A stretch of DNA of 32,136 nucleotides from a virus (lineage: Duplodnaviria > Caudoviricetes), in IMG/VR virus record IMGVR_UViG_3300033067_000240, positions 1 through 32,136 of that record. One strand, given 5' to 3'. The notes under the pieces were generated by a model. The model had not been told where the DNA came from. It worked only from the letters and a program-made list of their open reading frames with translations, and made no database searches. Positions 1-25,875 of this stretch are shown here, one piece after another (within the stretch, counting starts at the first letter, position 1; each line of letters starts with the position of its first letter). The translations under genes and the position numbers were made by a program.

Positions 1-961
1 CTAGTTCCTTCAGTAGCTCTATCTGTTCAGGATGTGCCGCTAGTAAGTCAATGCGTGTGTAGCACCAAAACTTAATCTTAAATGGTAGGTCACGCATGAC
101 CTTTACCATCATTTCTAATTTTTCCGTGCTGTCATTAAATGTGTCATCTACAATAAAGTATTTTGTAGTTCCCCAGCGTTCGTAGTTTTCTAATAGCTCA
201 TCACGAATCTTGCTAGGATACTTTAAGTAGTCGTTTACATTCTTTTGTCCAATGAGTGGGAAATTACAAAACGCACACTTGAATCTACATCCACGACCTA
301 CTTCTAGTGTAAGTGTTTCTTGTGGTTGTATAAAATCAAACTCTGTATAGCGTGTTGAGCTTTCACGGAAGTCCCAAGTATCAGCATGTGCTTTACGATC
401 GTGGTCAATAAACTTGTTGAAGATGCGTTTGCTTTTTCCGCTTAACTTGTCTAGCAAGTCAATAGTCATTGTTTCAGCAATACCAAAGATAACATGGTCT
501 ACATTCTTTAAGTCCATATAGAAGTCTGCTTTAGCACCACCTAGTACAATTTTAAGTTTAGGATTAATTGTCTTAGGGTACAGTAAGAACTCGTCTACTT
601 CATCCTTGCCAAACTTAACAACTAAGTTATCTTTACGCCAATCGTGTTTTTCTTCTTTAGTGTTACTAAGCTCATGGTCTTCACCGATGTAATGTCCGGG
701 AATTTGATTAGTAAACTCTCCAGGTAGTTCTGGCCAGCGATATGGTAGCCATGTAGTACTATATCCAACCATTAATGTTTCAGGGCCAACACTGGCATCT
801 ATGATCTCTTTATACTTGTCAAAGGTGAGTGCTGAACTGAAGTCTACTACTAAGCAAGTGTAGCCGTTGGCTCTGATTTGGCTAGCAATACGGTGAACAC
901 CATATCCACGAATTTTGTGATGAGGGTAAGGTGCATCGGTAAATAGTATTACATTAAACAT
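1..961 (-). CDS. Cobalamin-binding (class B-like) radical SAM protein, 3' end truncated by the window edge
   Basis: Not in the ORF track; translated by hand from ATG at 961: MFNVILFTDAPYPHHKIRGYGVHRIASQIRANGYTCLVVDF...VGYSTTW...KIVLGGAKA (B12-binding-like domain), then LEVGRGCRFKCAFC (CxxxCxxC) and FIVDDTFND. Frame stays open to base 1. Confidence 0.85.
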   Translation of the reverse strand, partial: MFNVILFTDAPYPHHKIRGYGVHRIASQIRANGYTCLVVDFSSALTFDKYKEIIDASVGPETLMVGYSTTWLPYRWPELPGEFTNQIPGHYIGEDHELSNTKEEKHDWRKDNLVVKFGKDEVDEFLLYPKTINPKLKIVLGGAKADFYMDLKNVDHVIFGIAETMTIDLLDKLSGKSKRIFNKFIDHDRKAHADTWDFRESSTRYTEFDFIQPQETLTLEVGRGCRFKCAFCNFPLIGQKNVNDYLKYPSKIRDELLENYERWGTTKYFIVDDTFNDSTEKLEMMVKVMRDLPFKIKFWCYTRIDLLAAHPEQIELLKEL

Positions 962-967
962 AGCATA

Positions 968-973
968 TATTTA
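968..973 (-). promoter_or_regulatory. TAAATA late-promoter-like box 6 nt upstream of the ATG at 961
   Basis: Minus strand reads TAAATA-TATGCT-ATG; the same geometry recurs at other block starts. Confidence 0.5.
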
Positions 974-989
974 AGCAGATAGGACTACT

Positions 990-1676
990 ATGAAATATTT
1001 TCAATCCGTGTTAGCATTTGGCGACAGCCATGTGGCAGGGTGTGAGCTTGCTGGCCAAGGCGGGTTAGATGATTACACACAGGGTAAACTAACTATAGAA
1101 GAATTAGACGCTCCGGGCAAGCTCCTAGCGTTTCCCCAAATTGTAGCAGATTATTTAAAAGTGCCTTGTTACAACTATGCTATGACAGGCGGCAGTAATG
1201 CTCGCAGTCTAAGACTACTAACTAAAGCAGTTCAAGAACATCCTAACAGTCTAGTACTATTTGGTTACACTTGCACTGATCGTTCAGAATTTTACTACCC
1301 AGATCCAGGCAACTTCTTAGGGCGTGATAAAGACAACTTCATACAAGTTGGCCTACAGTGGGAAGGTCCTATCAAGAGCAAGGGAATGGAGCATCCAATA
1401 AACGATGTGTTCATTAGAAACATACTTAGACCGTACAACAACATGAACGAACTTATGTTTCATGTTGACAATACATGCACAATGTACGCAACTGACTTTT
1501 TACACATTCCTCTAGTCACTGAAGAGTTTAGCACACAAGATAATGTCTTAGACTTTGAAGGACATATATCTTATGCCAAGTGGTGCATTGAGCGTAAGTT
1601 TAAACAATTGCCTTATCGCCATTACGACCGGGCAGCACATACAGCACTAGCTGAACTAATTCTTAAGGAACTATAA
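990..1676 (+). CDS. SGNH/GDSL hydrolase-like protein (possible acyl esterase or transferase)
   Basis: Block I AFGDSH, block II-like NYAMTGGSN, and C-terminal RHY..AAH His motif. Confidence 0.6.
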   Translation: MKYFQSVLAFGDSHVAGCELAGQGGLDDYTQGKLTIEELDAPGKLLAFPQIVADYLKVPCYNYAMTGGSNARSLRLLTKAVQEHPNSLVLFGYTCTDRSEFYYPDPGNFLGRDKDNFIQVGLQWEGPIKSKGMEHPINDVFIRNILRPYNNMNELMFHVDNTCTMYATDFLHIPLVTEEFSTQDNVLDFEGHISYAKWCIERKFKQLPYRHYDRAAHTALAELILKEL

Positions 1677-2023
1677 TGGCTTGGGGCTATCACTTAATGG
1701 TTGACTGTACGAAGTGTAATCTAGATTACATCACAGACAAAGAACGCATTGCTGAATTTGTCAGAATATTGATCAGTCGAGTTGACATGGTTGCACACGG
1801 CGAGCCACAAATTGAATTCCTATTGCCAGGCACAGACAACGAAGGATATAGTGTATTGCAAATGATTACAACTAGCAATATAACTGCACACTTTGTAAAC
1901 TCTACTAGAGCAGGTTACATTGACTTGTTTAGTTGTAAACCGTTTAATAAGACAGTTGTGCTTTACACCGTTAACGAGTTCTTCAATCCTGAAGAAACTG
2001 TTGTAAACTATTTAGAGCGTTAA
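1676..2023 (+). CDS. speD: S-adenosylmethionine decarboxylase proenzyme-like (SpeD/SpeH family, pyruvoyl-dependent)
   Basis: 115 aa; GYHLMVDC at N-terminus, GYSVLQMITTSNITAHF (self-cleavage region, canonical ESHISIHT), YIDLFSCKPF. Confidence 0.75.
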   Translation: MAWGYHLMVDCTKCNLDYITDKERIAEFVRILISRVDMVAHGEPQIEFLLPGTDNEGYSVLQMITTSNITAHFVNSTRAGYIDLFSCKPFNKTVVLYTVNEFFNPEETVVNYLER

Positions 2024-3102
2024 GGATCTAAACGCATCTGTTCTCTGCTACGGAACTGGTAGCGTTCAGGAACAGTATCCCACAAGGTTGCATTTTTATT
2101 AACAGCTTGATCACGCAACATGATCTGATGTAGGAAGTTGGTAATAGGCTTGCCCGGCACAAAGTCACACCATGGTCCGCAACGCAGTTCTTCCATGTCA
2201 ATAGTCTTAGGATCACTCCACTGGATTAGTCTATGTACAATTCCGTTAATCTTAACCATGTAGTGATACAAGTTGTCATCTGCAGGAATCTTCTCCCATG
2301 TCCAACCCCGACTATCTACATAGGCTTTAATTTCCTTAATGTGGTCGCTTAGGTAGTAGCGTGGTTCGTCGGGGTTGCGTCCAATGTCACTGCCAGCACG
2401 GATACGATATTGTGTAGCACTATCGCCTAGCAGTTGAATTTCTTCTAGTACATCTGGAATGTGTGTAATACTTTCTAGTGTATATCCAATGTAATACAAA
2501 AGTATGCCTTCTTCCTTACAATTTTGAATGCCTTCAAGTTGCTTGCGATGCACAGTTTCGCCCTGGTAAGAATGGTGGTTTAAACCTATCATAACAGCCC
2601 TACAGCCGGCTTGTTTTATCTCATGCACCCAAGCCCTATCACTTAGCTTTACGCCGTTTGTAAGGATTGTAATATCCTGGTGACTTCTGCCCAATTTCTG
2701 TTGTAAATCTGCCACACGCTTGATAAGTTCTGGTAGGTCTTTTCTTACTGTGGGTTCTGCGCCTGCAAGGATAACACTACCTGCATCATCAGGCCATGAT
2801 TCAATTTGTGCTAGGATTAGGTCAACTGGTTTGTCTGTGGTAGCTGATTCAGGTTCGTGATAGCAGTGAGGACATTTCAAGTTGCAACGGTCTGTGACTT
2901 CTACCATGATGCCGCTTGGTACATCGTAGCCGTAGGGATCAAACTCTAATGAGTTGTAGAACTCTGCGTCACGCTCTATCATGTACTCTGACTCGCCGTG
3001 AACAGGACAAGTCTTCTTCATCCAGACACTGCCATCTCTTTCAAACTTTTCTGCTGGAACATGTCTGTAGCATTGTTCACATAATGATGTTGTTAATTCC
3101 AT
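2020..3102 (-). CDS. Radical SAM protein with MJ0619/Tes-like N-terminal metal-binding domain
   Basis: TTSLCEQC...KKTCPVHG N-terminus; EVTDRCNLKCPHC; LAGAEPTVR; ILTNG. Confidence 0.85.
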   Translation of the reverse strand: MELTTSLCEQCYRHVPAEKFERDGSVWMKKTCPVHGESEYMIERDAEFYNSLEFDPYGYDVPSGIMVEVTDRCNLKCPHCYHEPESATTDKPVDLILAQIESWPDDAGSVILAGAEPTVRKDLPELIKRVADLQQKLGRSHQDITILTNGVKLSDRAWVHEIKQAGCRAVMIGLNHHSYQGETVHRKQLEGIQNCKEEGILLYYIGYTLESITHIPDVLEEIQLLGDSATQYRIRAGSDIGRNPDEPRYYLSDHIKEIKAYVDSRGWTWEKIPADDNLYHYMVKINGIVHRLIQWSDPKTIDMEELRCGPWCDFVPGKPITNFLHQIMLRDQAVNKNATLWDTVPERYQFRSREQMRLDP

Positions 3103-3629
3103 CGCTCTACCTTGTTTAGTTGTTCTAAGAATACAGAACTATTTAACTTCCAGAAAGTCTGCACATGCCCTCTGTATTCTTTTTCAAACGCACGAGTCAA
3201 CACACCTGTCTTTTCTAAGGTTGGTCCCCATATGGTATGCACTAGTCGTTGTGTGCCCACATCACTTGGGTGTGTTGTTATGTACATGTCACCTTTAGCC
3301 CATTCAATACAAGCAGGCATAAAGAACTGTGCTGTATAATGTTGATGAGTTGCTATTTGATTTCTAGTACGCAAGGTAGTAGCTGGCAACAGGTCGCTGA
3401 GTATACAGGTCCTTGCACAAATACGATAACCTTCATCTATGCTGTGTGCGCCCACTGAGCCTACGGCCTTATTGTTGTAGTAAAGAATCCACACGCACCA
3501 CTCACGCTCGTTTCTAAAGCAATCAATCATTGCCTTTTGACTAGCGTTATTTACAAAACCCCTACGGTCTGCTTCAGCATAGAATTCAGTTAAATCTAAC
3601 TCTGGCGTCCACGGAATTATTTTATACAT
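3093..3629 (-). CDS. GNAT-like acyltransferase, putative
   Basis: 178 aa; VWILYYNNKAVGSVGAH beta-strand pattern, RICARTC and MYITT resemble GNAT fold elements; weak match. Confidence 0.4.
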   Translation of the reverse strand: MYKIIPWTPELDLTEFYAEADRRGFVNNASQKAMIDCFRNEREWCVWILYYNNKAVGSVGAHSIDEGYRICARTCILSDLLPATTLRTRNQIATHQHYTAQFFMPACIEWAKGDMYITTHPSDVGTQRLVHTIWGPTLEKTGVLTRAFEKEYRGHVQTFWKLNSSVFLEQLNKVERWN

Positions 3630-4303
3630 TTTGCTCGTTCAATAAAATCACTAGGATAGTTCTTTCTAAAACTTTCCCAACACAGTTCCTCTAGTAATGC
3701 TAGGGGCTGTGGTTCAGTCCAACTGATGCCCATAGCGTCAGTTGCTTTCTTCATCTCTTCTTGTCTAGTACTATAGATATGACTGGTATGATCTGCAATG
3801 CTAATAGGACCTTCAGTTAGATGATAAGTGAAGAAGTAGTTGATGCTTTTTAGTTTGCCGTCAATGACAAAATAACTGCTGGGGTGCATACTGTATTTGT
3901 ACAAACATACTGCATGGTGTGCTTCAATAATGGTCAGCATCTGCTCTTGCCAATCCGGTAGCACCTTATCAAAGTTTGCCTGGTCACAGCCCGCTAGTTC
4001 CCAAAAGTCCGGCCCTTCTACTTCTAAGTAAATTTTGCGTTCGCAATGATCGATCAGTAGGATCTTAGGAATGAACTCTGGAAATATCTTTTCCATCATA
4101 CGCAGATACTTGACTTCACGCTGGAACTTATCGTCCATTAATTTTGGATCTACTACTTGATTCTGCCCTTTATGGTAATCACCCTCTGTAGTGTAATGCT
4201 GGACGAAAACTTTTTTATCGGCACTCATTAAACTAGTGTAAATAAGATTGTTACGACACAAGCCGGAACCTGGCACATTGTTGTAGTAGTATTCGTAGTT
4301 CAT
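3617..4303 (-). CDS. Degenerate protein-kinase-like fold protein
   Basis: FQREVKYLRMM...FIPKILLID...KIYLE resembles the kinase alphaC/N-lobe; catalytic HxDxxxxN and DFG positions read YSMHPSSY and LKSINYF. Confidence 0.45.
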   Translation of the reverse strand: MNYEYYYNNVPGSGLCRNNLIYTSLMSADKKVFVQHYTTEGDYHKGQNQVVDPKLMDDKFQREVKYLRMMEKIFPEFIPKILLIDHCERKIYLEVEGPDFWELAGCDQANFDKVLPDWQEQMLTIIEAHHAVCLYKYSMHPSSYFVIDGKLKSINYFFTYHLTEGPISIADHTSHIYSTRQEEMKKATDAMGISWTEPQPLALLEELCWESFRKNYPSDFIERAKCIK

Positions 4304-4326
4304 ATAGTAATTATCAAAGAGGAAAC

Positions 4327-5127
4327 ATGATCAAGGGCATAAACGGCATTCCATATTATAGCATGGAACAACACTTAGATATGGCAGAGTTTGACAGACT
4401 GCAACCAGAAATAATCGCGGGCTTTGCTACAGCTAGAGAGTTTGCCAAAGAAGGCACTTGGATGAAGCCGGGATTCACTTTTGAAGATATGAGCTATCAG
4501 CCAAACTGGAAACCTATGTATAAGGCGTTAGAAGAGTTTCAAGCACTTGACGACAACGATCCAATTAAGCTAGCAGGTAGTGCGTTTTGTAAAGACTTTA
4601 GTGATTACAAGATGCGTAACAAACTAACACGATTTTTAAAAATGGCAATGGGTGCTTACGATCCTTACATTTACTATTTCCTATGGGAAGAAGGTAGTTG
4701 GGATGATAGAACTGCGCCACGCAAGTTAACAGAAGAAGCTGAACACTTTCCTAATGTTGTTAAGTGGGTAGAGCAATTACAAGGTACAGTGTTTGAACAC
4801 ATTGGCCGTGTAATCTTCTTTCATTGCGACCATGACGGTATTCCTTTTGAACACAGAGACTTAGATGCTAAGAATGGTATGAACATAACATTCCCGCATC
4901 GCAACGAATTTATCCACATACGCCCTAATACAAAGAAAGCGTTTTACTTGTGGGATCCAGAAAAGAAAAACAAAGTATATCTTAACACTAGAGCCGCATG
5001 GTGGAATGACCAAGACTGGCACGGTGGCGAGAAGATTATGGAACAAAGTTACAGCTTACGCATTGACGGTAAGTTTACAGAAGAGTTCCGCAAGAAGCTA
5101 GGAATTGATCATCTTGACAACTACTGA
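4327..5127 (+). CDS. Fe(II)/2-oxoglutarate oxygenase-like (cupin) protein
   Basis: EHRD...DWHGG His-x-Asp...His triad followed by YSLRIDG; GAGG Shine-Dalgarno upstream. Confidence 0.6.
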   Translation: MIKGINGIPYYSMEQHLDMAEFDRLQPEIIAGFATAREFAKEGTWMKPGFTFEDMSYQPNWKPMYKALEEFQALDDNDPIKLAGSAFCKDFSDYKMRNKLTRFLKMAMGAYDPYIYYFLWEEGSWDDRTAPRKLTEEAEHFPNVVKWVEQLQGTVFEHIGRVIFFHCDHDGIPFEHRDLDAKNGMNITFPHRNEFIHIRPNTKKAFYLWDPEKKNKVYLNTRAAWWNDQDWHGGEKIMEQSYSLRIDGKFTEEFRKKLGIDHLDNY

Positions 5128-5689
5128 TCACGGTATTTTTACCTTAATGACTAAAGGTAACCTGGCCATTATGGATTTCAATCCAGAAGGCGATCGTTAC
5201 CCGCAAGAGCTAGTAGACGATGTGTATGCTAGAGAATGTAAGTACTTGCTACAACTAGCCAAGTACAGTTGGGCTCCAGAAGCTGTTAACTTTGACAAAC
5301 AGTTTAGGCGCATATATTTTAAGTGGTATGGCAATACTTGCGAAGATATTGTACCAGACGATTATGCAGAACAGTTGCTACAAATAACTAAAGACTTGCA
5401 TACTGAACAAATATACAAGCCTAGTTTTTACACCAAGTATTTTTATGTAGATGATCGCAACAAGCTTCATGCATGGTCGTTTTATTCTGCTAGCAGTTAT
5501 GACGAGCAACCTATAGCAATGGACTTTTATAGACCTATTCTAAACAATCAGCGCGAAGAGCTAGTTAACAAACTTGAGTCTGATGGCAAGTTAGATATGA
5601 AGTTGCTAGTAGAGCGTGGATTTAATGAATACATACAATGGCCCGGCAATCCACTACCGAGCATTTACCAATCAGTTTACAATTCTTAA
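5105..5689 (+). CDS. Degenerate kinase-like protein, paralog of 3617..4303 (start uncertain: TTG 5105 or ATG 5147)
   Basis: YARECKYL, RRIYFK, YAEQLLQI, IYKPSFYTKYFYV align with FQREVKYL, RKIYLE, WQEQMLTI, LYKYSMHPSSYFV. Confidence 0.45.
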   Translation: MIILTTTDHGIFTLMTKGNLAIMDFNPEGDRYPQELVDDVYARECKYLLQLAKYSWAPEAVNFDKQFRRIYFKWYGNTCEDIVPDDYAEQLLQITKDLHTEQIYKPSFYTKYFYVDDRNKLHAWSFYSASSYDEQPIAMDFYRPILNNQREELVNKLESDGKLDMKLLVERGFNEYIQWPGNPLPSIYQSVYNS

Positions 5690-7293
5690 AACTTTAAAGC
5701 CATCCACTCTTGTGGAGTCATACCTTTAAAGATTTCACTCTTAAGATACTCATAGTATTGCGGAAACTTATGTGCTGACATCTTCAAGTGATCTTGTATA
5801 TACTTAAAGTGTAGCTCTGCTAGTTTAAGTTCATCTTCTGGAATGTTCTTTGAAGGCCACTTGCTTAGATCTAAGTTCCATGTTGCTGCCAACTCAATCC
5901 ACATGTAATCAGGGAAGAAGCACTTTGACTGTGCGGCACCATTGATTGTGTTTTTATGATCGTTGTACTTGTCTAATAGTAACTGTTCGTGATTTAATTT
6001 TTGACCTATGTCACGCATCTGCAACCAGAAGTCATTGTCAGTCCTTGATGTTAGCGTATAGTGTACTAACACAAAGTCTGCAATATCGTCAAAGGTATAA
6101 CCCATCTTTGTATTGTAGTCAGTCCAATCAATGTTATGAATATTCTCTTTGTTTGCTTCAATGGTGTGTGCAATTTCCCATGCTGAGTTAGATATAACAC
6201 CTAGCATGTTTGCTTCCATAGGTTCAACAAATCCAATAGTCATTCCTACAGCCACTACATTACCAAAGCCCGGGGATATCATACGCTTCTTATCCCAAGA
6301 AATTTTCTTAGGTTCAAACTTAGGCTTGGTTAAAATTTTCTCGTGATATTCTCTTAACACATCTTCGTCACTAACAAAGTCGTTGTTAAAAATGTAGCCA
6401 GTTCCTCGACGATGGTACAGATCAATATCAAAGACCCAACCTTTATCCATAGCAATAGACTTAGTGTAGTTGACTACCTCTGTAGTAGGATCTTCGTAAT
6501 CAACTTGGCACACAAATGATGTGTTGGCAGGATTGTTATCATACCACTTCCATTTGACATTATCAAATTCTCTAATCAAAGCACGATGGAATCCTGAACA
6601 GTCAATATATAGGTCAGCAGTCATTTCTTCACCAGTGTCTAGCACTAGTTTAGAAATACGCTCGCCTGCTTTTTCCACACCTTTAACATGTGCTAGTTTA
6701 TGTTTTACGCCACCCGGTATTGCCACATACTTCATCAAGTAATCTGCAAAGCGCTCAGTGTTGATATGGTAAGCCCATGTAAGGTCATTTGTTGGCAAGT
6801 ATGACTCGCCGTTGATAAAAGGTGCTTTAAGGTCTTCAGTAAACTCTGTCCATCCTGTAAAGTTTTTACTAAAGTTTCGATCAGTGCGTCCTTGCTTGAA
6901 CAGCTCTAGCCAGTAGTCAGTAAGTCGTAATTCGTCTACTGATACATCCATGTGGTCGTTCCACGATACTCCATTGTATGGAGATGATAGCAAGTGTTTC
7001 TTACCTTTGTTAAATGCAAAAGTAAATAGCTCATTTTCGCCTTTGCCGTGTAGCCAGTTGATAAAATTGTTACCATACTTATAAACGCTACCTGTTTCAA
7101 ACATGAAGTGTTTTTCTTCAATGCCCAGTACTCTGATAAATTCTGTTAAATGTACAGTGACAGATTCACCTACGCCAATCCGCGCCACATTTGGACTTTC
7201 AACTAGTGTTATTTCACTGTTAGGAACAAACTTGTTAAGCCAGCTTGCTGTCATCCATCCAGATGAGCCACCGCCAATAATAACGATCTTCAT
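5686..7293 (-). CDS. Tryptophan halogenase (PrnA/RebH)-family flavin-dependent enzyme
   Basis: 535 aa; IIGGGSSGW FAD-binding motif, IGVGES, SVYKYGNNFINW, AYHIN, ADLYIDCSGF, GWVFDIDL, GFVEPMEA, DFVLVHY..R.DNDFW. Confidence 0.9.
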   Translation of the reverse strand: MKIVIIGGGSSGWMTASWLNKFVPNSEITLVESPNVARIGVGESVTVHLTEFIRVLGIEEKHFMFETGSVYKYGNNFINWLHGKGENELFTFAFNKGKKHLLSSPYNGVSWNDHMDVSVDELRLTDYWLELFKQGRTDRNFSKNFTGWTEFTEDLKAPFINGESYLPTNDLTWAYHINTERFADYLMKYVAIPGGVKHKLAHVKGVEKAGERISKLVLDTGEEMTADLYIDCSGFHRALIREFDNVKWKWYDNNPANTSFVCQVDYEDPTTEVVNYTKSIAMDKGWVFDIDLYHRRGTGYIFNNDFVSDEDVLREYHEKILTKPKFEPKKISWDKKRMISPGFGNVVAVGMTIGFVEPMEANMLGVISNSAWEIAHTIEANKENIHNIDWTDYNTKMGYTFDDIADFVLVHYTLTSRTDNDFWLQMRDIGQKLNHEQLLLDKYNDHKNTINGAAQSKCFFPDYMWIELAATWNLDLSKWPSKNIPEDELKLAELHFKYIQDHLKMSAHKFPQYYEYLKSEIFKGMTPQEWMALKF

Positions 7294-7303
7294 TAGAGCA
7301 CCT

Positions 7304-7311
7304 TATAAATA
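7304..7311 (+). promoter_or_regulatory. T4-type late promoter consensus TATAAATA
   Basis: Exact TATAAATA in the 22-bp divergent gap, 4 nt before ATG 7316. Confidence 0.65.
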
Positions 7312-7315
7312 TCTC

Positions 7316-16950: not shown

Positions 16951-16992
16951 GAAATATTTATGTGCTACTTTAACTAGGGTAAATATTTCATG
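16948..16992. promoter_or_regulatory. Palindromic bidirectional promoter/start cassette, copy 1
   Basis: CATGAAATATTTA-tgtgctactttaactaggg-TAAATATTTCATG; 13-bp inverted repeat containing both start codons. Confidence 0.7.
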
Positions 16993-19105: not shown

Positions 19106-19148
19106 GAAATATTTATATGCGTACTTAATAGGGTAAATATTTCATGGA
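19101..19148. promoter_or_regulatory. Palindromic bidirectional promoter/start cassette, copy 2
   Basis: TCCATGAAATATTTA-tatgcgtacttaataggg-TAAATATTTCATGGA; 15-bp inverted repeat with spacer similar to copy 1. Confidence 0.7.
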
Positions 19149-20001: not shown

Positions 20002-21250
20002 AACATTTTGTATGCACCCTTTCACAGGGTTAGCAACTAGAGAAGATGGTGCCATACAAGTGTGCTGCCGAAGTCATCCAGTGGGCAATGTCCAGTGTCA
20101 GAGCTTAGAAGACATCTGGAATAACAACACAATGAAGCGTATTCGTCAGCAGGTGTTGAACAACGAACGCCCTAAGGAGTGTGAACCTTGCTTTAGTTTA
20201 GAAGATCAAGGTGTTGAGTCATTAAGACAGCGACACATTGAACCTAAGATTCCAGAAAGCCGTATTACACTTTACCCTAATGCGTTAGATAACCTAAGTG
20301 CTGACTACTCAATGCCGTTTGAGATTCCTACAATGGAACTTAAACTGAACAACTTGTGTAACTTAAAGTGCCGCATGTGCCATCCTATGGATAGTACGAG
20401 TTGGAATGATTGGAAAGAAGTAGAAGAGTTCTATGTTAAAGAAAATAACTTTATGGTGCAAGCCATTAAGGACTTAAACTTAGCAAACAAACCCTACTTA
20501 GATAAGTTCACAGACAACCCTAAATGGTGGGCTAGTTTAGAAAAGCTGTTGCCCTACTTCCGTCGTGTAGAGTTCGCAGGCGGCGAACCTCTAATGGATC
20601 CTACACACTATAAAATCTTAGACATGCTGAAGCCCTATGGACACCAAATTGAAATCAAATACGCAACTAACGGAACAACTACAGGTATTAAAGGCGGCAG
20701 AAACATACACGACTACTGGCCGCACTTTAAATCAGTCGCAGTCAATGTATCGATCGACGGCCTTGACAATAGCTACGAGTATATTCGTGGTAATGGTGTG
20801 TTTAGCGATGTCGTTGCTAATATAAAAACTATTCAAGCAATTCCTAATGTTACTCGTGTAGTAGGTGCTGTTGCTGTGCAGGTTATCAACATTATGGTTC
20901 TTGATAGAATGATTGAAAAGTTCTTAGACGAACTAGACATTGTGTTCTATACCAATATGGTCAAGTACCCTAATGTTCTAAGCATACAAACTATGCCTAT
21001 GGAACTTAAACAAATTGCGGCATTGCGCCTGCACTTGATTAAAGATAAGATTCCCGATTACAAGATGGTCAAGAAGCATCCTATCCTAGAGCAGATTACA
21101 CGCAAGCAAATTGAAGGTGTAGTCAACTTTATGTTTGCTAAGGATGAAAGTCATTTGTGGAAAGATACTATTGAGTTTAACCGCAAGTTAGATGCAAGCC
21201 GTAATCAGAGTTTCACAGATGTAACTCCGGAGTTCAAGCCGTATGTTTAA
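19988..21250 (+). CDS. Radical SAM protein with N-terminal SPASM/twitch-like domain, paralog of 17681..19105
   Basis: FCMHPF...IQVCC...CEPC, then CNLKCRMC, FAGGEPL, YATNG, VSIDG. Confidence 0.9.
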   Translation: MQTSKTFCMHPFTGLATREDGAIQVCCRSHPVGNVQCQSLEDIWNNNTMKRIRQQVLNNERPKECEPCFSLEDQGVESLRQRHIEPKIPESRITLYPNALDNLSADYSMPFEIPTMELKLNNLCNLKCRMCHPMDSTSWNDWKEVEEFYVKENNFMVQAIKDLNLANKPYLDKFTDNPKWWASLEKLLPYFRRVEFAGGEPLMDPTHYKILDMLKPYGHQIEIKYATNGTTTGIKGGRNIHDYWPHFKSVAVNVSIDGLDNSYEYIRGNGVFSDVVANIKTIQAIPNVTRVVGAVAVQVINIMVLDRMIEKFLDELDIVFYTNMVKYPNVLSIQTMPMELKQIAALRLHLIKDKIPDYKMVKKHPILEQITRKQIEGVVNFMFAKDESHLWKDTIEFNRKLDASRNQSFTDVTPEFKPYV

Positions 21251-22148
21251 AGTTACTAGTCGATGGCCGCATCAAGGATCTATTAAAATAGAATGGAACC
21301 TTGGCAAGCGTTGTAACTACGATTGTAGCTACTGCCCGTCGAGCATACATGATAACTTTAGTCCGCACACTGACATCGAAATATTAAAAGTTGCTGTAGA
21401 TAAACTAGCATCATTGGGCAAGCCTATCCGTATAAGTTTTACAGGTGGTGAACCAACTGTGCATCCTAAGTTCAGAGAACTAGTGCAGTATTGCAAGCAT
21501 GTGGGCATCAGTTGGATTAGCGTAACAACCAATGGCACATTGCCTTATGAGTTTTATGCTAGCTTGCCTGTAGATCAGTTAGTGTTTAGTATACACATGG
21601 AGTACGATTGGATGCGTGTGTTTAACACTATGGAAAGCGTTATTGACTCAACAAAGATAAAAGTGATAGCACAGATTATGGCTCACCATGATCATATGAT
21701 GAATGTAAGTATATTGCGTACTAGATGCTTGCTAGCACACATTCCCAATACAGTTCGTAGAATACGCTGGACTGAAGGCGACCACGATTTGTTTGATGAC
21801 ATGCGCTATAATGCAAATGACCTTAACTGGATCAAAGAGCAAGACGCAACTGTAACAGAGAATGTAATATTTTTTAAGGAAGCAGATGACGGATTACCAG
21901 TTTTCGCCCACGCAAACGATATGATTAAGAATCATCAAAATAAATTTAAAGACTGGTCTTGTAATGCTGGCATAGAAAGTTTGATGATTAACTGGGATGG
22001 CGATGTACATCGTGCCACTTGTCGTGTAGGCGGATCGCTAGGTAATATCTACGAAGGCACATTCATGCAACCAGTTGAGCCAGTTATCTGCGACAGGAAC
22101 TTTTGCACCTGCGCCGCAGACATACCTTTAACTAAGTTTAAACTTTGA
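21243..22148 (+). CDS. Radical SAM protein with C-terminal Cys-rich (twitch-like) domain
   Basis: EWNLGKRCNYDCSYC, FTGGEPT, TTNG, WSCNAG...CDRNFCTCAAD. Confidence 0.9.
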   Translation: MFKVTSRWPHQGSIKIEWNLGKRCNYDCSYCPSSIHDNFSPHTDIEILKVAVDKLASLGKPIRISFTGGEPTVHPKFRELVQYCKHVGISWISVTTNGTLPYEFYASLPVDQLVFSIHMEYDWMRVFNTMESVIDSTKIKVIAQIMAHHDHMMNVSILRTRCLLAHIPNTVRRIRWTEGDHDLFDDMRYNANDLNWIKEQDATVTENVIFFKEADDGLPVFAHANDMIKNHQNKFKDWSCNAGIESLMINWDGDVHRATCRVGGSLGNIYEGTFMQPVEPVICDRNFCTCAADIPLTKFKL

Positions 22149-23165
22149 TATTTGTGTTTCTGGTTGGCAGAAACAATTATTGATTCCGCAGATAACAGGT
22201 TTAAACTCTGGGTTAAACTGTTCCACAAAATCCTTATCTAGTATGTTGAAGCTGTAGTCTAAGCCGTATAGCTTCTGTTGGCAACTACCTGCAATGCTTC
22301 CATCCCAATGGATGTAGACTGCTTCAAGACCTAAGTCACAACTCCAACCTTTAAAGTTGTTCCAGTTGTTGTTAATGTATGCTTGTGGTCTTGCATTCAT
22401 CTTCTTGCCGTTAGACAGAGTTGCTTTGCTTTCAAAAATACGCATTTCACTAGCTAGTAGTTTAAAGTTCTTGATGAACCATAACACTCCTGGAATACGC
22501 TTTAAGCCTTTCTTCATGTACTGCTTTTGGGCTGGAGTGTATCTGCGTTCTTCCGCACTAATAATCTTAATGCTGTTCAACGACATGTGTTCTGGTTCAA
22601 TTACTTCAGCGGCTTGAATGAACCACTTGTGCTTACTGTTTGCTCGCATGTATTCAATGTCTTCAACACCTTGTTCCCAGTTATACGGATCCATTAATAC
22701 TAGTGCTGTAGTCTTTTTACCTAGCTCAAACATTGTATCTGCAACTGCGATGTGATGGTCACGGTCGCCTTCTGCGATGTGATAGCTAAGTGTTACATTA
22801 TCAATTAGGTGCCCGTACTCTTTCCACCAGCGCAGAGTTCTACTGCCGTTAGAAATAAGTGTTAGGTACACATCATTTTCTTTCTTAATGCCGTGTATAA
22901 AGATAGCTAAGTCTTTCCACAGGGTAGGTTCACCACCTGCAATCTTTAAATGCACTTTGGTCTTGCCTAGCTTTTCTTTATATTGTTTTAGGAAGTGATT
23001 GAAGTTCTTGATAATCAAGTCAATGTCTTTAGGACTCTTGTAATCGCCATCGTGTGAACCTGGAAAGCAATACCTGCAATCAAAGTTACACACATTGTTT
23101 GGACACCATCTTATTTCTAAGACATTGTCCGGCTGTGTTGAAACAATCTTAATAGGCGTTATCAT
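22128..23165 (-). CDS. Radical SAM protein with C-terminal Cys-rich domain; start corrected from 23246
   Basis: CNFDCRYC, IAGGEPTL, ISNG, WSCDLG...CGINNCFC. ATG 23165 (MITPIKIV) gives a short overlap with the upstream gene. Confidence 0.9.
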   Translation of the reverse strand: MITPIKIVSTQPDNVLEIRWCPNNVCNFDCRYCFPGSHDGDYKSPKDIDLIIKNFNHFLKQYKEKLGKTKVHLKIAGGEPTLWKDLAIFIHGIKKENDVYLTLISNGSRTLRWWKEYGHLIDNVTLSYHIAEGDRDHHIAVADTMFELGKKTTALVLMDPYNWEQGVEDIEYMRANSKHKWFIQAAEVIEPEHMSLNSIKIISAEERRYTPAQKQYMKKGLKRIPGVLWFIKNFKLLASEMRIFESKATLSNGKKMNARPQAYINNNWNNFKGWSCDLGLEAVYIHWDGSIAGSCQQKLYGLDYSFNILDKDFVEQFNPEFKPVICGINNCFCQPETQISKFKLS

Positions 23166-24240
23166 CTCTGTTATCCTGTACTTCGAGGAACTGGTCGCTC
23201 GGTTGTGAAATTTCTGCACTCGTAAACTTGCCGCAAACTCTAGCACAAGTAATCATCTTCTCTTCATTCCAATACTTGTTCCAGACTGTTTGCCAAGGCT
23301 CCGAGTCAATAATGTTGCGTATGCCTCTTGTTGCATTTAGCTGTCCTAACTCTTCAACAAGGTTAGCATACTGTGATTTAATTGCGTAATCAATTCTAGG
23401 GTCAACAAACTTATTGTCGTAATAGGTTGTTGGAATAGAACTTACCCAACAGCAAGGTAACAGTTTCTTGTGTGCATCAATATAGATTTCCTTTTCGTGC
23501 TGTGCATGGCAACTAATGACTGCTTCTGCAACTAGCTCCTTATAGGAATTAATAATTTCTTTGCTGATAAAATGCAAAGGCGTATCTGTAGGTGGTTCAA
23601 TCGTGTGTGTATGATTGCCTTCCTTGTCTTGCACTTCGCAGAATGGTTCGCCAACAAAGCGTGAACTGTTCTTTAAAGTAAATCTAGCAAAGCCCATTTC
23701 AACGCTACGCTTACGGCATTCTTCTGCTTGATGCTCGTTATGCTTAAACTTGATAAAGGTCCACTCTGCTGTGCCGCCTGCACCGATAAAAGCCTGTGCG
23801 TTGCGGATTACATTGTCGTATGTTGTGCCAATACGATGTAGATGATGTGTGTCTTCTAAACCGTCAATGCCAAACATGACTAAATGATTTTTAGGCAATG
23901 CCTGTGCTAGTGATTCCCACCACTTGGTATTTCTTGCGCCACCGTTTGTATGAATGCCAACAATGACGTCCGGTGCATTGTCTTTAATGTGTTGGCACAT
24001 TGCTACTAAATCTTGATTAAGAATAGGGTCGCCGAAGTTGCCGCAGAAGTAAATGCGTTCAACTTGATCTAGAACTTCTTGTGTGATAATCTGCTTAAAC
24101 TCGTCCAGTGACCAATCGTTTAACTGTAGCAAAGGATTAACTGGGCCGCCATGCTGATTACGAGCACACATAGGACAGGATGCTTGACAGTTGTTTGTCA
24201 CTTCTAAGTGAATCTGTTTTAGTTCTTTAAAATTAAACAT
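23149..24240 (-). CDS. Radical SAM/SPASM protein, paralog of 13626..14660
   Basis: CQASCPMC, FCGNFGDP, HTNGG, FGIDGLED, LLPCCW, CARVCG. Confidence 0.9.
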   Translation of the reverse strand: MFNFKELKQIHLEVTNNCQASCPMCARNQHGGPVNPLLQLNDWSLDEFKQIITQEVLDQVERIYFCGNFGDPILNQDLVAMCQHIKDNAPDVIVGIHTNGGARNTKWWESLAQALPKNHLVMFGIDGLEDTHHLHRIGTTYDNVIRNAQAFIGAGGTAEWTFIKFKHNEHQAEECRKRSVEMGFARFTLKNSSRFVGEPFCEVQDKEGNHTHTIEPPTDTPLHFISKEIINSYKELVAEAVISCHAQHEKEIYIDAHKKLLPCCWVSSIPTTYYDNKFVDPRIDYAIKSQYANLVEELGQLNATRGIRNIIDSEPWQTVWNKYWNEEKMITCARVCGKFTSAEISQPSDQFLEVQDNRDDNAY

Positions 24241-24826
24241 TGCGTCCTATTACCATAAATCTTTTATACAAGGGCAATTCTAATTCCCCTGCCCACAATA
24301 CTTCAATTCCGCATTGTGTTTTAAACTCTTCTAAGTCTTTTGCTGTGCGAACATGCTCAGGTATGTCGTAGTCGTTACTTTGCAATACCAGCAAAGTGTT
24401 ATACGGCATACCGCTCAACCATAAGTCAAACTGGTCTTGTGTAATATGCTCGCAACTCGTATTGATAACAATGTCTGCGTCACTGCGAATTGTACACATA
24501 TCAGAAGTAACTGCACGGAATCGTCCTTGCATTTCTTCATGCTTGTTCATCATAGTCGCAATAGGTTCGCATGTTGGATCAATATCGATGCTACGAATAG
24601 TAGTAACAGGAATGTTACTTTGAAATAGCATACTAGCAAGAGTGCCTACCCAGCCTCCGTGTATATCTACACTAGAACCAAAATGTACATGTTCGTCTAA
24701 GCAATCGATAAGCCACTCTTTACTTTTAAGCTGACCTGACCAGAACGCATCCATTGTACGCATAGGATCCGGACTTTGGCGAATTGCCTGCATCCAGTAG
24801 TGTAAATGTTCTGTGTCTATTTGCAT
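24233..24826 (-). CDS. Class I SAM-dependent methyltransferase-like protein
   Basis: VDIHGGWVG (motif I), IRSIDID (motif II acidic residue), DIVINTSCEH. Confidence 0.7.
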   Translation of the reverse strand: MQIDTEHLHYWMQAIRQSPDPMRTMDAFWSGQLKSKEWLIDCLDEHVHFGSSVDIHGGWVGTLASMLFQSNIPVTTIRSIDIDPTCEPIATMMNKHEEMQGRFRAVTSDMCTIRSDADIVINTSCEHITQDQFDLWLSGMPYNTLLVLQSNDYDIPEHVRTAKDLEEFKTQCGIEVLWAGELELPLYKRFMVIGRNV

Positions 24827-25788
24827 TTTGGTATTTTGCTGTCTGCTGAACTAACACAACTAGGTGTAATACAACGAGTAGGTTCCTTGAATAAATTAAA
24901 GTTATCCAATGTACCTAATGGAACATCATGACAACTGTAACTGCGTTTGACTTCGTTACCTCTTATTATAACACTTTGATAGCCTGCATTGCAAGACCAG
25001 TTAGTAAATTTATTAAAGCCAAAGGCATTAAATCTTTCTGCTTGATCAAACAAATGTTCAGTACCGTCTGCTTCGTATAAAGCAATTTGATAAACTTCTT
25101 CACCGTTTGCTCTTTGTGGAAATCCTTCACGCATCTTGTGTATCATGTCTTCGGTGTAGCCGTCGACAATACTGCTAGCAGTTAGATCGCTTTGCGGTTT
25201 GAGCGTTACATTAATACCACGCTCGTGTAATCGTTCCATGCGTTCGTAGAGTTCGTAAAACTTCTCCGGCACCATAACTTGGTTAACTGTCACATGAACT
25301 AGCTCGTATTGTAGTTGTAAACACTTGTCGCCAAACTCTTGCTCTTTAGCAAACTCATCGTGGAAGCTGGCAGTGATACTGCGGCGTTGTAGCATCTCTG
25401 TATTCTTACACCAAGTGTTCCACCATTTGCTGCCTGGACTCAAGTTAGTGGTCATGTGTATACTTTGATAAGAACTTTCTTTCTCATCTAAGTGTTTAAT
25501 TAACTCTGGTAACTGTTTGTAGGCTGTAGGTTCGCCGCCACTGAACGACCAATGAAATTGGTTAAACCCATTAGCACGGGCTTGTCGTTTAATCTCGTCT
25601 ACTGTACTTTTATACAGTTCTAGACTTTGGTAATCTTGCACATCACTCCTAGCATAAGGCCAGCAGTAACTACATTTATAATTACAGAATCTTCCTAATA
25701 TCCAACTGGTTGAAAATAATGGATTGGCTAGCATGGTGCGCTGTCCAAAACGAACTATGTTGTTAAATGGTATATTAGAAAATTGCAT
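24817..25788 (-). CDS. Radical SAM protein with C-terminal Cys-rich domain
   Basis: SWILGRFCNYKCSYC, FSGGEPT, MTTN, WSCNAG...CITPSCVSSAD; related to 21243..22148. Confidence 0.9.
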   Translation of the reverse strand: MQFSNIPFNNIVRFGQRTMLANPLFSTSWILGRFCNYKCSYCWPYARSDVQDYQSLELYKSTVDEIKRQARANGFNQFHWSFSGGEPTAYKQLPELIKHLDEKESSYQSIHMTTNLSPGSKWWNTWCKNTEMLQRRSITASFHDEFAKEQEFGDKCLQLQYELVHVTVNQVMVPEKFYELYERMERLHERGINVTLKPQSDLTASSIVDGYTEDMIHKMREGFPQRANGEEVYQIALYEADGTEHLFDQAERFNAFGFNKFTNWSCNAGYQSVIIRGNEVKRSYSCHDVPLGTLDNFNLFKEPTRCITPSCVSSADSKIPKCK

Positions 25789-25794
25789 TGAATG

Positions 25795-25800
25795 TATTTA
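25795..25800 (-). promoter_or_regulatory. TAAATA late-promoter-like box 6 nt upstream of ATG 25788
   Basis: Minus strand reads TAAATA-CATTCA-ATG. Confidence 0.55.
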
Positions 25801-25840
25801 ATACGCAGAAAATAAGTCCAAATATTTCAGCCAAATAAGG

Positions 25841-25869
25841 TTGACATTGTAGCCAAAGTGCTATATAAT
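25841..25869 (+). promoter_or_regulatory. Consensus sigma70 promoter
   Basis: TTGACA (25841-46), 17 bp spacer, TATAAT (25864-69); predicted +1 falls at about the 5' end of the tRNA-like RNA. Confidence 0.85.
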
Positions 25870-25875
25870 ACAAGG

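Follow-up and report, generated by a model that had tools for sequence, protein, structure and literature searches.

A late-type island of radical SAM tailoring genes in an uncultured giant phage from lake water

Closest described systems

Radical-SAM-rich gene clusters have already been published for phages, without a function explained in the passages that describe them (PMC2853527, PMC5332604). CP220 and CPt10 are reported to carry an interchangeable module of about 10 kb with five radical SAM genes and an amidinotransferase gene, which was read there as boosting host metabolism (Timms et al. 2010, PMC2853527). The uncultured T4-like TARA_ERS488813_N000010 is described as having 12 radical SAM genes together with Fe-S assembly genes (Nishimura et al. 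2017, PMC5332604). A cyanophage cluster combines a halogenase, several 2OG oxygenases, methylases and a carbamoyltransferase with no scaffold gene, and it was proposed to serve capsule decoration or to make a secondary metabolite (Iyer et al. 2021, PMC7824862). The soluble PBCV-1 protein A064R is reported to join a GT-A domain and a methyltransferase in one chain that builds and methylates the virion glycan (PMC9614988), and mycobacteriophage-encoded glycosyltransferases are stated to decorate capsid and tail-tube subunits (Freeman et al. 2023, as cited in PMC12619734). Thymidine hypermodification, an example of combinatorial tailoring by phages with radical SAM, PLP, flavin and acetyltransferase enzymes, is described as defined by a P-loop 5-hmdU kinase, an amino acid:DNA transferase and a hydroxymethyl-U source (Lee et al., PMC8989533).

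We compared these systems with an island from an uncultured giant phage of lake water, in a window of 32,136 nucleotides. The CP220 module is one-third the size of the island, and twitch-N-terminal, oxygenase, halogenase and B12 genes were not seen in the region covered; on the model of the 23149-24240 family, three CP220 proteins reach 84-97 bits, the island amidinotransferase is 26% identical to CP220 gp086, and two NDP-sugar-transferase-fold genes adjoin the module. TARA_ERS488813_N000010 is likened by description alone; its genes are called only Fe-S-related auxiliary genes in the passage concerned. The cyanophage cluster has 8-12 genes; PMC7824862 does not use the word "radical", and its section 3.4.10 draws no link to late promoters or a tail operon. 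The layout of a 440-aa fusion in the island resembles A064R, whose GT domain is a top fold match of both that protein and a GT2-like gene of the glycosyltransferase (GT) block described below (identity 6-20%). However, PBCV-1 is a eukaryotic virus, A064R has a DxD motif and proven activity, and the account of it includes no radical SAM/oxygenase battery. In the mycobacteriophages glycosylation was measured, whereas for the island it is predicted from gene content, and the citing passage has no radical SAM/oxygenase tailoring. None of the three hallmarks of thymidine hypermodification was recognised in the island. For the twitch radical SAM family NF033640, which names single proteins, we found no assigned reaction; unlike that definition, its two members here lie within a 32-gene late island.

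Extent, gene content and conservation

The 31 genes in bases 1-25788 (2 to 25788) run back-to-back, with a coding fraction of 0.994 (99.4%) and a largest gap of 39 bp (Table 1). They comprise nine radical SAM and eight oxygenase-type genes, an amidinotransferase, a halogenase-family protein and helpers, which confirmed the 31-gene modifying-enzyme cluster of an earlier sequence-only reading. Its extent, given as at least 25.8 kb, stood as a contiguous run and was revised: the whole island is about 28 kb with 32 genes, 25.8 kb being visible in the window, and has a GT-A-fold gene inside. Gene 2-961 is truncated by the end of the record. In G001 it is 99% identical and 537 aa long, and is followed by a 515-aa paralogue, the island end and a convergent Mtd_N protein. 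Three starts were revised, 7316, 14660 and 23165 being likelier than 7103, 14732 and 23246.

Table 1. Genes and promoter regions of the island
Feature	Position	Strand	Evidence
B12-type (class B-like) radical SAM, N-terminal 320/537 aa	2..961	-	Pfam PF04055 E=6.5e-8; B12-binding below cut-off
Divergent promoter region	935..989	both	TAAATA at 973 (minus) and 940 (plus)
SGNH/GDSL-like protein	990..1676	+	conserved GDSH motif; Lipase_GDSL Pfam E=0.075 (weak); profile to another SGNH-like family E=3e-10
SpeD-like AdoMet decarboxylase, accessory	1676..2023	+	PF02675 E=3e-16; in 5/8 merged related contigs
Radical SAM with HMPTM-type zinc ribbon (short Tes/TrsS-like)	2020..3102	-	PF23545 + PF04055; NF045702 89.9 bits, cut-off 450
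GNAT-like protein, core	3093..3629	-	Pfam E=0.033 (weak); Atlas cluster, 20% PF00583; no match in PDB profile search
Protein-kinase-fold kinase-like, core	3617..4303	-	profile to TTK kinase E=4e-4
Divergent spacer	4304..4326	both	TAATTA ahead of both starts
AspH-like Fe(II)/2OG-type oxygenase, core	4327..5127	+	H176-D178-H232-R245 invariant; Atlas 0.95 to PF05118 cluster
Second kinase-like protein, core	5105..5689	+	paralogue; profile to 3617-4303 family E=6e-33
Flavin-dependent halogenase-family protein, non-canonical motifs, accessory	5686..7293	-	PF04820 E=3e-83; VirX1 E=1e-56; in 6/8 merged related contigs
Divergent promoter region	7294..7333	both	TATAAATA 4 nt before ATG 7316; TAAATA 34 nt before ATG 7293
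Fe(II)/2OG-type oxygenase	7316..7951	+	HxD...H...R conserved; start moved from 7103
Class III PLP aminotransferase	7948..9132	+	PF00202 E=2e-41
Amidinotransferase	9094..10137	-	HsvA and inosamine-phosphate amidinotransferase, both E=1e-22; His-Asp and Cys motifs aligned
139-aa protein, CPFA motif	10134..10553	-	phrog_10325 E=5e-21; accompanies amidinotransferase in phage and several bacterial loci
SDR-like dehydrogenase	10543..11154	-	Pfam Epimerase, adh_short, both below cut-off (weak)
Asp/Asn beta-hydroxylase-domain oxygenase, accessory	11144..11677	-	PF05118 E=8e-20
Predicted GT-A/nucleotidyltransferase fold (N-terminal) + class I SAM-methyltransferase fold (C-terminal), 440 aa	11667..12989	-	structure model
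Asp/Asn beta-hydroxylase-domain oxygenase	12976..13629	-	PF05118 E=4e-11
Radical SAM, paralogue of 23149-24240	13626..14660	-	PF04055; start moved from 14732
Fe(II)/2OG-type oxygenase	14647..15213	-	conserved motif; profile E=2e-3 to AspH family
Fe(II)/2OG-type oxygenase	15210..15743	-	motif; profile E=4e-4
Fe(II)/2OG-type oxygenase, paralogue of 15210-15743	15740..16288	-	shared family
Fe(II)/2OG-type oxygenase, core	16285..16950	-	motif; profile E=2e-3
39-bp divergent promoter cassette	16951..16989	both	TAAATA 4 nt before each ATG
QueC-like PP-loop protein, accessory	16990..17718	+	PF06508 24 bits, cut-off 22
N-terminal-twitch radical SAM, core	17681..19105	-	NF033640 397 bits, cut-off 170
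38-bp divergent promoter cassette	19106..19143	both	near copy of 16951-16989
Fold-type-I PLP enzyme, threonine-aldolase-like (weak)	19144..20001	+	invariant H157-x-D159, S184-K187; PDB threonine aldolase E~0.5
N-terminal-twitch radical SAM, core	19988..21250	+	NF033640 329 bits, cut-off 170; 160 relatives in viral contigs
Radical SAM with C-terminal Cys cluster, core	21243..22148	+	PF04055 E=3.5e-13
Radical SAM	22128..23165	-	PF04055 E=5e-13; start moved from 23246
Radical SAM, core	23149..24240	-	family common to CP220 and Mosig islands
Class I methyltransferase-like protein	24233..24826	-	motif only; PDB search blank; Mosig_00090 annotated putative methyltransferase; HMM 111 bits on RsoM2USA_347, in tail-linked GT operon
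Radical SAM, core, end gene	24817..25788	-	PF04055 E=4e-13; adjoins GT block in many relatives
TAAATA	25795..25800	-	6 nt ahead of terminal gene's start

All nine radical SAM genes contain CxxxCxxC and match Pfam PF04055; eight pass its cut-off, and the 13626-14732 call scores 29.2 against 29.5. The two that pass NF033640 (N_Twi_rSAM) have N-terminal twitch cysteines in addition to CxxxCxxC. The count of eight Fe(II)/2OG-type oxygenases also held: two match Pfam Asp_Arg_Hydrox, while for the other six the call rests on an HxD...H triad that at least 90% of family rows keep and on a weak profile likeness to AspH families (E 8e-5 to 0.03 at best). These six fall into five families, four of which have a distal Arg; none is conserved in the 15210/15740 family. 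The halogenase-family, class III aminotransferase, SpeD-like and QueC-like calls are database-backed, and profile matches bear out the amidinotransferase and the kinase-like pair. The SDR, SGNH, GNAT, second PLP (conserved Lys187) and methyltransferase calls are consistent but weak or motif-only.

We found that dN/dS against G001 was 0.009-0.093 in all 22 gene pairs tested, and the island genes are therefore under purifying selection; the sole divergent gene is 13626-14660 (63% to G001). Clustering is kept across related phages rather than scattered. The relatives are T4-like jumbo myophages of about 350 kb with a gp55-like late sigma. The viral origin of the contig is supported by its virus record and by the T4-like hallmarks and gp55-like sigma (E=4e-80) of a relative with a colinear island. 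The term "viral system" holds for the phage genome, but the system is not purely viral, as sub-clusters occur in Bdellovibrionota chromosomes, one of them (L201) beside rpoD/dnaG on a 917-kb contig.

The sequence-only reading had seen no scaffold gene, and none emerged. No A-domain or ketosynthase was found in five relatives, one of them 99% complete (positive controls were detected), and no PqqD/RRE in the island or these relatives, with the control detected in only 4 of 14. No scaffold lies beyond base 1 in a relative colinear at 87%, where one B12-type radical SAM gene ends the island, and none was found in the 99%-complete relative. The 90 accessory genes scanned in related islands include UDP-glucose dehydrogenase, epimerase, GT8, de-N-acetylase and sulfotransferase, and no ACP, A-domain or PqqD.

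Late-type promoters and glycosyltransferase linkage

All 11 transcription-unit leaders carry a late-type motif, TAAATA in nine and TAATTA in two, and these motifs also precede virion genes of relatives. Shuffled spacers gave a mean of 1.4 leaders with TAAATA, and 0 of 1000 shuffles reached nine. The motif occurs at 1 of 20 internal genes and 1 of 11 right-arm genes. With leader classes assigned by hand in G002, it stands in 18 of 24 structural leaders versus 3 of 18 replication/early leaders (p=4e-4). The late-type promoters suggest the assembly stage. Late timing is also compatible with Mom-type DNA modification, and it fits lysis-stage products too.

The 440-aa protein, newly read here as a predicted fusion of a GT-A fold with a methyltransferase, gave a model of pLDDT 79.7 with Foldseek matches to GT-A folds. 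In VIA its Z was 9.8 to STIV A197 and 9.5 to the PBCV-1 capsid GT (rmsd 4.0, 170 aligned), and 8.8 to CheR for residues 225-425; values up to 9.8 are close to the background of 7-8. The GT-A model has no DxD motif, and the gene is missing in G006.

The end gene is carried by 89 loci, 57 of which show at least 1.5 kb past it. A GT-block gene lies within 3 kb in 31 of the 57, and 30 of these 31 overlap the end gene. Grouped at 90% identity, the island adjoins the GT block in 13 of 35 groups, and 22 have no GT within 3 kb. In the window, G001 and G002 no GT block adjoins the island; in G002 the block sits elsewhere in the genome. The block comprises two GT8-like and two GT-A genes, with matches to glycogenin (E=1.2e-7) and, for a GT-A fold with an invariant DxD, to the PBCV-1 capsid GT (E=2e-4). 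It follows tail-fibre-type genes in several lineages, and in the distant relatives L069 and L085 (U440 about 35% identical) fibre-type genes, GT block and island lie on one strand.

Cognate islands of four cultured phages are smaller and contain glycosyltransferases. RsoM2USA has the run sheath, tube, fibre-like gene, GT8, GT8, GT2-like, twitch radical SAM, GT2-like, methyltransferase. In K566, five radical SAM genes are interleaved with two GT8 and two weak GT4/GT1-like genes; CP220 has five radical SAM genes, the amidinotransferase and two annotated NDP-sugar transferases; the Mosig island adjoins tail fibres, with a GT8. Among 16 bacterial loci scanned, four have GT2, and bacterial homologues adjoin GT2, epimerase and carbamoyltransferase genes. 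The Bdellovibrionota loci most like the island (L197, L201, L204, L265) had no Pfam GT in view.

Candidate functions

We give roughly an even chance to the island being a late pathway that tailors a phage-built glycan on virion proteins, such as tail fibres. Support comes from the late-type promoters, the GT linkage in relatives and cultured phages, the sugar genes among the accessory genes of related islands and the resemblance of the fusion to A064R. Gene content, promoter motif, purifying selection, the conserved core and the GT-block linkage behind tail genes in relatives are shown, and the steps that follow are inferred. The short divergent units would be switched on by the gp55-like sigma late in infection, and Fe-S clusters would likely come from phage Isc/Suf proteins (IscU is encoded in G002, SufC/SufBD in G006). 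Cytoplasmic attachment of sugars to a virion protein would fall to the GT block, which in the window's subgroup probably sits elsewhere in the genome, as it does in G002. The sugar or its donor would be oxidised, epimerised, deoxygenated, methylated and acylated by the core, made up of the twitch and other radical SAM enzymes, the AspH-type oxygenases, the methyltransferase, the PLP enzyme, the kinases and GNAT. Among swappable modules, SDR, aminotransferase and amidinotransferase may convert carbonyl to amine to guanidine; others would be the B12 radical SAM pair with SGNH and SpeD, and the GT-A/methyltransferase fusion. The halogenase-family module may act on an aromatic group, and groups hung on the glycan may also be edited. 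If so, the virion protein plus the GT block would take the place of the "missing scaffold", and the selective purpose would likely be a shielded or varied particle surface.

The GT-A-fold gene and the glycosyltransferase linkage make the glycan target stronger, and DNA or RNA weaker, than the sequence-only reading allowed. Against glycan tailoring, the substrates best known for halogenase-family, AspH-type, SpeD and amidinotransferase enzymes are aromatic compounds, amino acids, lipids or polyamines. HsvA, which ties with an inosamine enzyme as the amidinotransferase match, is a polyamine amidinotransferase. Amino-acid or polyamine chemistry would suit the halogenase, amidino and oxygenase modules too. 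Neither an NDP-sugar nucleotidyltransferase nor a clear epimerase is present in the window's island, and the Bdellovibrionota that carry sub-clusters have no virion.

Direct modification of virion-protein side chains, proteusin-like on very large fibres and with glycosylation secondary, is unlikely. The chemistry would be hydroxylation, C-methylation, epimerisation, halogenation, phosphorylation and amidination, and the eight oxygenase-type genes with AspH affinity, protein-kinase-fold kinases, halogenase-family enzyme and B12-type pair would suit it. So would the late promoters, the Ser/Thr/Gly-rich fibres of 1,900-4,900 aa and the collagen fibres in G006, and an amidinotransferase and a 2OG oxygenase are reported in the S-SCSM2R virion preparation (PMC12801897). 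However, PqqD/RRE was not found in the searches noted above, the large proteins of G001 and G002 have no collagen runs, and in unrelated cultured phages the radical SAM families are found together with GTs.

The combination of SDR, aminotransferase, amidinotransferase and kinases is reminiscent of streptidine logic, and that of 2OG oxygenase with a threonine-aldolase-like PLP enzyme of nucleoside antibiotics. These sets could make a diffusible small molecule (aminocyclitol, high-carbon nucleoside or guanidino-polyamine type), lysis-released or intracellular, which we regard as quite improbable. The same families cluster on Bdellovibrionota chromosomes, and Iyer et al. allowed for this possibility in cyanophage halogenase clusters (PMC7824862). 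On the other hand, A-domain and ketosynthase were not found in the five relatives and no transporter-like gene is present, the genes show overlapping linkage to tail-associated GTs, and modules swap around a fixed core more than one metabolite would usually tolerate.

It was proposed for cyanophage clusters that host envelopes are altered (PMC7824862); remodelling of envelope sugars or lipids (LPS, capsule, ornithine or other lipids), blocking superinfection, is still more doubtful here. The AspH family includes lipid hydroxylases (OlsC match E=8.5e-9, far below cut-off), one radical SAM protein is Tes-like, some related islands have fatty-acid desaturases, and bacterial homologues adjoin the GT2, epimerase and carbamoyltransferase genes named above. 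However, all 31 products look soluble (no transmembrane-type gene; maximum 19-residue hydropathy mean 1.82), with no flippase or polymerase, late promoters suit host protection poorly in the lytic end stage, and the island lies within the tail operon in RsoM2USA.

Hypermodification of phage DNA (or tRNA) after replication and before packaging is very unlikely: radical SAM, PLP, GNAT, flavin and kinase classes are all reported in thymidine hypermodification (PMC8989533), a QueC-like gene is present and G006 has 49 ARAGORN tRNA calls, but the kinases have a protein-kinase fold, not P-loop, the QueC-like gene was not found in G006 though FolE/QueD/QueE homologues are kept, relatives carry ThyX or ThyA plus DHFR, with the FolE/QueD/QueE set and a DpdA-like gene outside the island, and CP220, with a cognate island that is given no role in the passages concerned, carries dADG in place of every G, a change assigned there to DpdA3 and the CDG pathway.

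Gene content and limits of the island

An earlier sequence-only reading had described a run of tailoring-enzyme genes on phage DNA, and both points were borne out. The island consists of 31 contiguous genes in alternating orientation (see the table), and the DNA comes from a virus record, which rules out a cellular origin. The capsid (gp23), portal (gp20), terminase, sheath and gp55-like sigma genes that mark T4-like jumbo myophages were found in the 270-kb relative G002, where the island is colinear; none lies within the 32-kb window. Capsid proteins of Phosso, 2.275.O, PA5oct/Paride and GAP32 share 68-72% identity with that of G002. The sequence and close variants are present in contig datasets, with one study from freshwater. 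No tRNA genes were found in the window.

Features of the window and of related genomes
Feature	Location	Strand	Observation
Tailoring-enzyme genes (31)	window 2-25788	both, alternating	99.4% coding
Halogenase-family gene	window 5686-7293
440-aa gene	window 11667-12989		previously unannotated
Diverged radical SAM gene	window 13626-14660		63% identity to G001 counterpart, neighbours 82-99%; blastn break 13629-14113
Divergent promoter cassettes	window 16951-16989; 19106-19143	both	near-identical, 38-39 bp
Twitch radical SAM gene	window 17681-19105		NF033640, 397.4 bits
Twitch radical SAM gene	window 19988-21250		NF033640, 329.3 bits
Methyltransferase gene	window 24233-24826
Radical SAM end gene	window 24817-25788	-
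Right-arm genes	window 26021-32135	+	small; include metallophosphoesterase and WYL_2-fold protein; kept in G001
AbrB/MazE-like gene	window 26754-26921		55 aa; Pfam E=8e-7
Blocks aligned to G001	window 1-13629; 14113-32067		~87%
Mtd_N-domain gene	L001 13146-14384
N-demethylase-like gene	L035 9113-9838		PF11927, haem-dependent; extra in G002 island
FolE and QueE-like genes	G002 93429-105494 (L039, L040); G006 188861-197069		QueD elsewhere

All nine island radical SAM proteins carry CxxxCxxC and a Pfam match. Two of them passed the curated cut-off (170) of NF033640 (N_Twi_rSAM), which the other seven did not reach. Among the eight oxygenase-type genes, two matched Pfam Asp_Arg_Hydrox, and the remaining six were assigned from weak profile similarity and conservation of an HxD...H triad. 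Database matches supported the halogenase-family, aminotransferase, amidinotransferase, SpeD-like and QueC-like assignments; those of the SDR, SGNH, GNAT, second PLP and methyltransferase genes are weak or motif-only. The start codons of three island genes are to be shifted. Comparison with G001, a 98-kb related genome, gave dN/dS below 0.1 in 22 of 22 island gene pairs, ruling out chance open reading frames or decayed genes.

The motifs WxWxIP and FxEPLESxG are diagnostic of flavin-dependent halogenases (PrnA/VirX1). When the halogenase-family protein was aligned to VirX1, the GxGxxG flavin motif and the catalytic lysine (Lys72) were present and conserved in the family, and both diagnostic motifs were absent (WVFDID and FVEPMEANM versus WVWNIP and FIEPLESTG in VirX1). 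Since the family consensus at these sites is GW-x and FxEPxEA, halogenation is not assured. The amidinotransferase, a pentein, has the His-Asp and C-terminal Cys motifs in alignment to HsvA. The Tes-like radical SAM protein scored 89.9 bits against the GDGT-MAS/Tes tetraether synthase model NF045702 (cut-off 450). The B12-type radical SAM protein gave 17-18 bits for the B12-binding domain PF02310 (cut-off 32.1); its best NCBIfam matches were B12 families, far under cut-off, and no match to it was found among cultured phages.

Past base 1, G001 completes the truncated B12-type radical SAM gene and then encodes its 515-aa paralogue and, in convergent orientation, an Mtd_N protein; small unrelated genes follow. 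This gene order rules out a scaffold gene just past base 1 and gives an island of 32 genes spanning ~28 kb, without an adjoining scaffold. In several relatives the left end of the island is met by a convergent gene for an Mtd_N-domain protein, whose length varies widely (347-696 aa). Between the two blocks aligned to G001, the pattern of identity suggests that an allele swap likely occurred at the diverged radical SAM gene.

Relatives indicated which island genes are retained. The island of G006 (353 kb, rated 99% complete) shares 14 window families: six radical SAM, three oxygenase, two kinase-like, GNAT-like, PLP and methyltransferase. Family models detected no B12 pair, SGNH-228, SpeD, Tes-like, halogenase, amidino module, 440-aa gene or QueC-like gene anywhere in G006. 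Eight merged related contigs, retrieved by left-arm queries so that the subgroup of the window is over-represented, all contain the set of aminotransferase, amidinotransferase, 139-aa and SDR genes; six contain the halogenase and five SpeD. The 90 accessory or neighbouring proteins of related islands include UDP-glucose dehydrogenase, epimerase, GT8, de-N-acetylase and sulfotransferase, together with TauD, further oxygenases, alternative oxidase and desaturases. The alternative oxidase gene is inserted within the island in 10 distant-group loci (for example, L076, L081 and L082), and the G002 island is without a homologue of the window methyltransferase gene that ends at 24826.

Predicted late-type promoters and glycosyltransferase neighbours

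The T4 late promoter has TAAATA as its core. Transcription units begin at 11 points in the island, with ten of these starts arranged as five divergent pairs; TAAATA is found at nine of the 11 and TAATTA at two, 4-44 bases upstream of the ATG. Dinucleotide shuffles of the same 60-mers gave a mean of 1.4, and none of 1,000 reached nine. TAAATA precedes 1 of 20 internal island genes; in the right arm it precedes 1 of 11, which encodes the AbrB/MazE-like protein. With classes assigned by hand, TAAATA precedes 18 of 24 structural leaders in G002 versus 3 of 18 replication/early leaders. The TAAATA/TAATTA leaders are likely to be late-type promoters, as predicted from sequence. In both divergent cassettes, TAAATA lies 4 bases before the ATG on each strand, and the predicted transcripts would therefore be nearly leaderless.

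In the structure model of the 440-aa protein (pLDDT 79.7), the N-terminal part adopts a GT-A/nucleotidyltransferase fold (VIA Z 9.8 to STIV A197; Z 9.5, rmsd 4.0 and 170 aligned residues to the PBCV-1 capsid glycosyltransferase) and the C-terminal part a methyltransferase fold (CheR, Z 8.8). The protein is without DxD, and the fold Z-scores barely exceed background. It is predicted to be a fusion of a GT-A fold and a methyltransferase, and is the only candidate soluble glycosyltransferase within the window.

In relatives, virus-encoded soluble glycosyltransferases form a block made up of a GT8-like pair (glycogenin E=1.2e-7) and a GT-A pair in which DxD is invariant. Among 89 loci containing the end gene, at least 1.5 kb was visible past that gene in 57, and a gene of the glycosyltransferase block lay within 3 kb in 31. 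After collapsing at 90% identity, the block was near the end gene in 13 of 35 groups and absent from that position in 22. Distant relatives have fibre-type genes, the block and the island in that order on one strand. In G002, block and island are 80 kb apart; the block there follows tail genes and includes a twitch radical SAM gene of its own. As a matter of gene order, we regard this synteny as more telling than the 440-aa fold match. G006 (L184, L189) also carries several collagen-repeat fibre proteins, 49 tRNA calls, a tmRNA, three further glycan loci and a 1576-aa multi-GT/FkbM fusion (L178).

Cognate genes in cultured phages and bacteria

Smaller islands of this kind occur in cultured phages. 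In RsoM2USA, the sheath and tube genes are followed by a fibre-like gene, GT8, GT8, GT2-like, twitch radical SAM and GT2-like genes, and a methyltransferase of the window family. ORFs 359 and 356 (sheath and tube) are among the virion bands in PMC8504454. In Vibrio phage K566, two GT8 genes and two weakly GT4/GT1-like genes are interspersed among five radical SAM genes. The cognate island of CP220 combines an amidinotransferase gene and five radical SAM genes with two genes annotated as having an NDP-sugar-transferase fold. Mosig has AspH, GNAT, PLP, radical SAM, carbamoyltransferase, methyltransferase and GT8 genes beside its tail fibres.

Radical-SAM-rich content was noted before in a CP220 module (PMC2853527) and a marine T4-like genome (PMC5332604), in both cases without a tested function in the portions available, and cyanophages are described as having a halogenase/oxygenase cluster, also without a tested function (PMC7824862, section 3.4.10). 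Virus-made virion glycans are established for PBCV-1 (PMC9614988), and are cited for mycobacteriophages in the moraphage paper (PMC12619734), which treats a different lineage. Searches of mostly open-access main texts found no published characterisation of the island.

Bdellovibrionota appeared in the titles of 54 of 76 genome loci matched by the twitch alignment. Six Bdellovibrionota loci hold multi-family sub-clusters with amidinotransferase and PLP families, and one sub-cluster adjoins rpoD and dnaG, within a contig of 917 kb. These chromosomal sub-clusters indicate that the chemistry is not virion-only. GT2 genes were present in 4 of 16 bacterial loci scanned and were not found in the four most like the window island. 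Six contigs in bacterial MAG bins (L194, L200, L202, L209, L211 and L229) resemble phage islands of the window's family, and are probably bin contamination.

Candidate functions of the island

Gene content, promoters, selection and glycosyltransferase linkage were observed; a substrate, an order of steps, a product and a purpose are what we infer. In the best-supported reading, which has perhaps an even chance of being correct, a late pathway edits a phage-built glycan and its attached groups on virion surface proteins: the late-expressed island enzymes would act on the phage-made glycan, and on groups hung on it, on the particle. Several modules fit amino-acid or polyamine chemistry equally with sugar chemistry.

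The island may well represent an unusually large case of virus-encoded surface tailoring. Fe-S- and oxygen-demanding enzymes under strong purifying selection take up about 8% of a ~350-kb genome, with more than 100 related viral loci; Fe-S assembly genes occur in relatives (IscU in G002, SufC and SufBD in G006). If the island edits the virion surface, phage particle chemistry is far richer than known, which would be relevant to host range, grazing, decay and recognition by immune systems. The question is testable in cultured CP220, whose 11 radical SAM genes have been unexplained since 2010, Mosig and K566.

More speculatively, the virions of aquatic jumbo phages, which are abundant, might bear a natural-product-grade coat, a polymer or glycoconjugate that radical C-H chemistry builds (C-methyl, guanidino, hydroxyl, possibly halogen), with modules swapped like serotypes and a core shared with predatory Bdellovibrionota. 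Such a coat would add a new chemical class to phage particles and provide a dozen uncharacterised radical SAM/oxygenase families.

Direct modification of side chains in fibre proteins appears unlikely. Collagen-specific hydroxylation is not favoured as a general purpose: collagen runs are found in G006 and in no G001 or G002 protein.

Synthesis of a small molecule is a still weaker candidate. As the sequence-only reading had claimed, NRPS and PKS are missing: adenylation (AMP-binding) and ketosynthase domains were found neither in the window nor in five relatives, one of them 99% complete, with search controls matching in 12 and 14 of 14, respectively. Pfam coverage of the relatives was partial (146 of 250 ORFs in G002; in G006, 131 of the 170 ORFs of at least 120 aa that matched nothing in the window, G001 or G002). 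RRE/PqqD domains were also found in none of the five or the window, in a search that matched 4 of 14 controls and that divergent RREs could escape. Within the island, where the largest intergenic gap is 39 bp, there is no short RiPP precursor gene, although a precursor or a protein substrate may be encoded elsewhere, and the 90 accessory or neighbouring proteins include no carrier protein or ligase.

Remodelling of the host envelope, ranked just below a small molecule, is also improbable.

DNA modification is very unlikely, since the island kinases have a protein-kinase fold and not the P-loop type of the 5-hmdU kinase of thymidine hypermodification, the thymidylate genes are ordinary in relatives, the FolE/QueD/QueE set is separate from the island, and the dADG of CP220 is assigned to DpdA3 (bioRxiv 2023.04.13.536721). 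Tet_JBP and HMUDK_hel, of thymidine hypermodification, were found in none of five relatives, but neither matched any control. AADT had no match in general Pfam scans of the window and of the relatives' scanned ORFs. Among the genes for 7-deazaguanine DNA modification, FolE, QueD, QueE and DpdA are absent from the island, and FolE, QueD and QueE lie elsewhere in G002. The QueC-like gene, missing from G006, is not favoured as an obligate part of a deazaguanine pathway. PDB profile searches with the GT2-like, GNAT-like, methyltransferase-like and DpdA-like alignments returned nothing useful. The FolE regions of G002 and G006 also encode a DpdA-like protein of 508-587 aa, which itself drew a blank in the PDB search and owes the DpdA label to a GDSGG motif. 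The two genomes probably carry out 7-deazaguanine DNA modification independently of the island.
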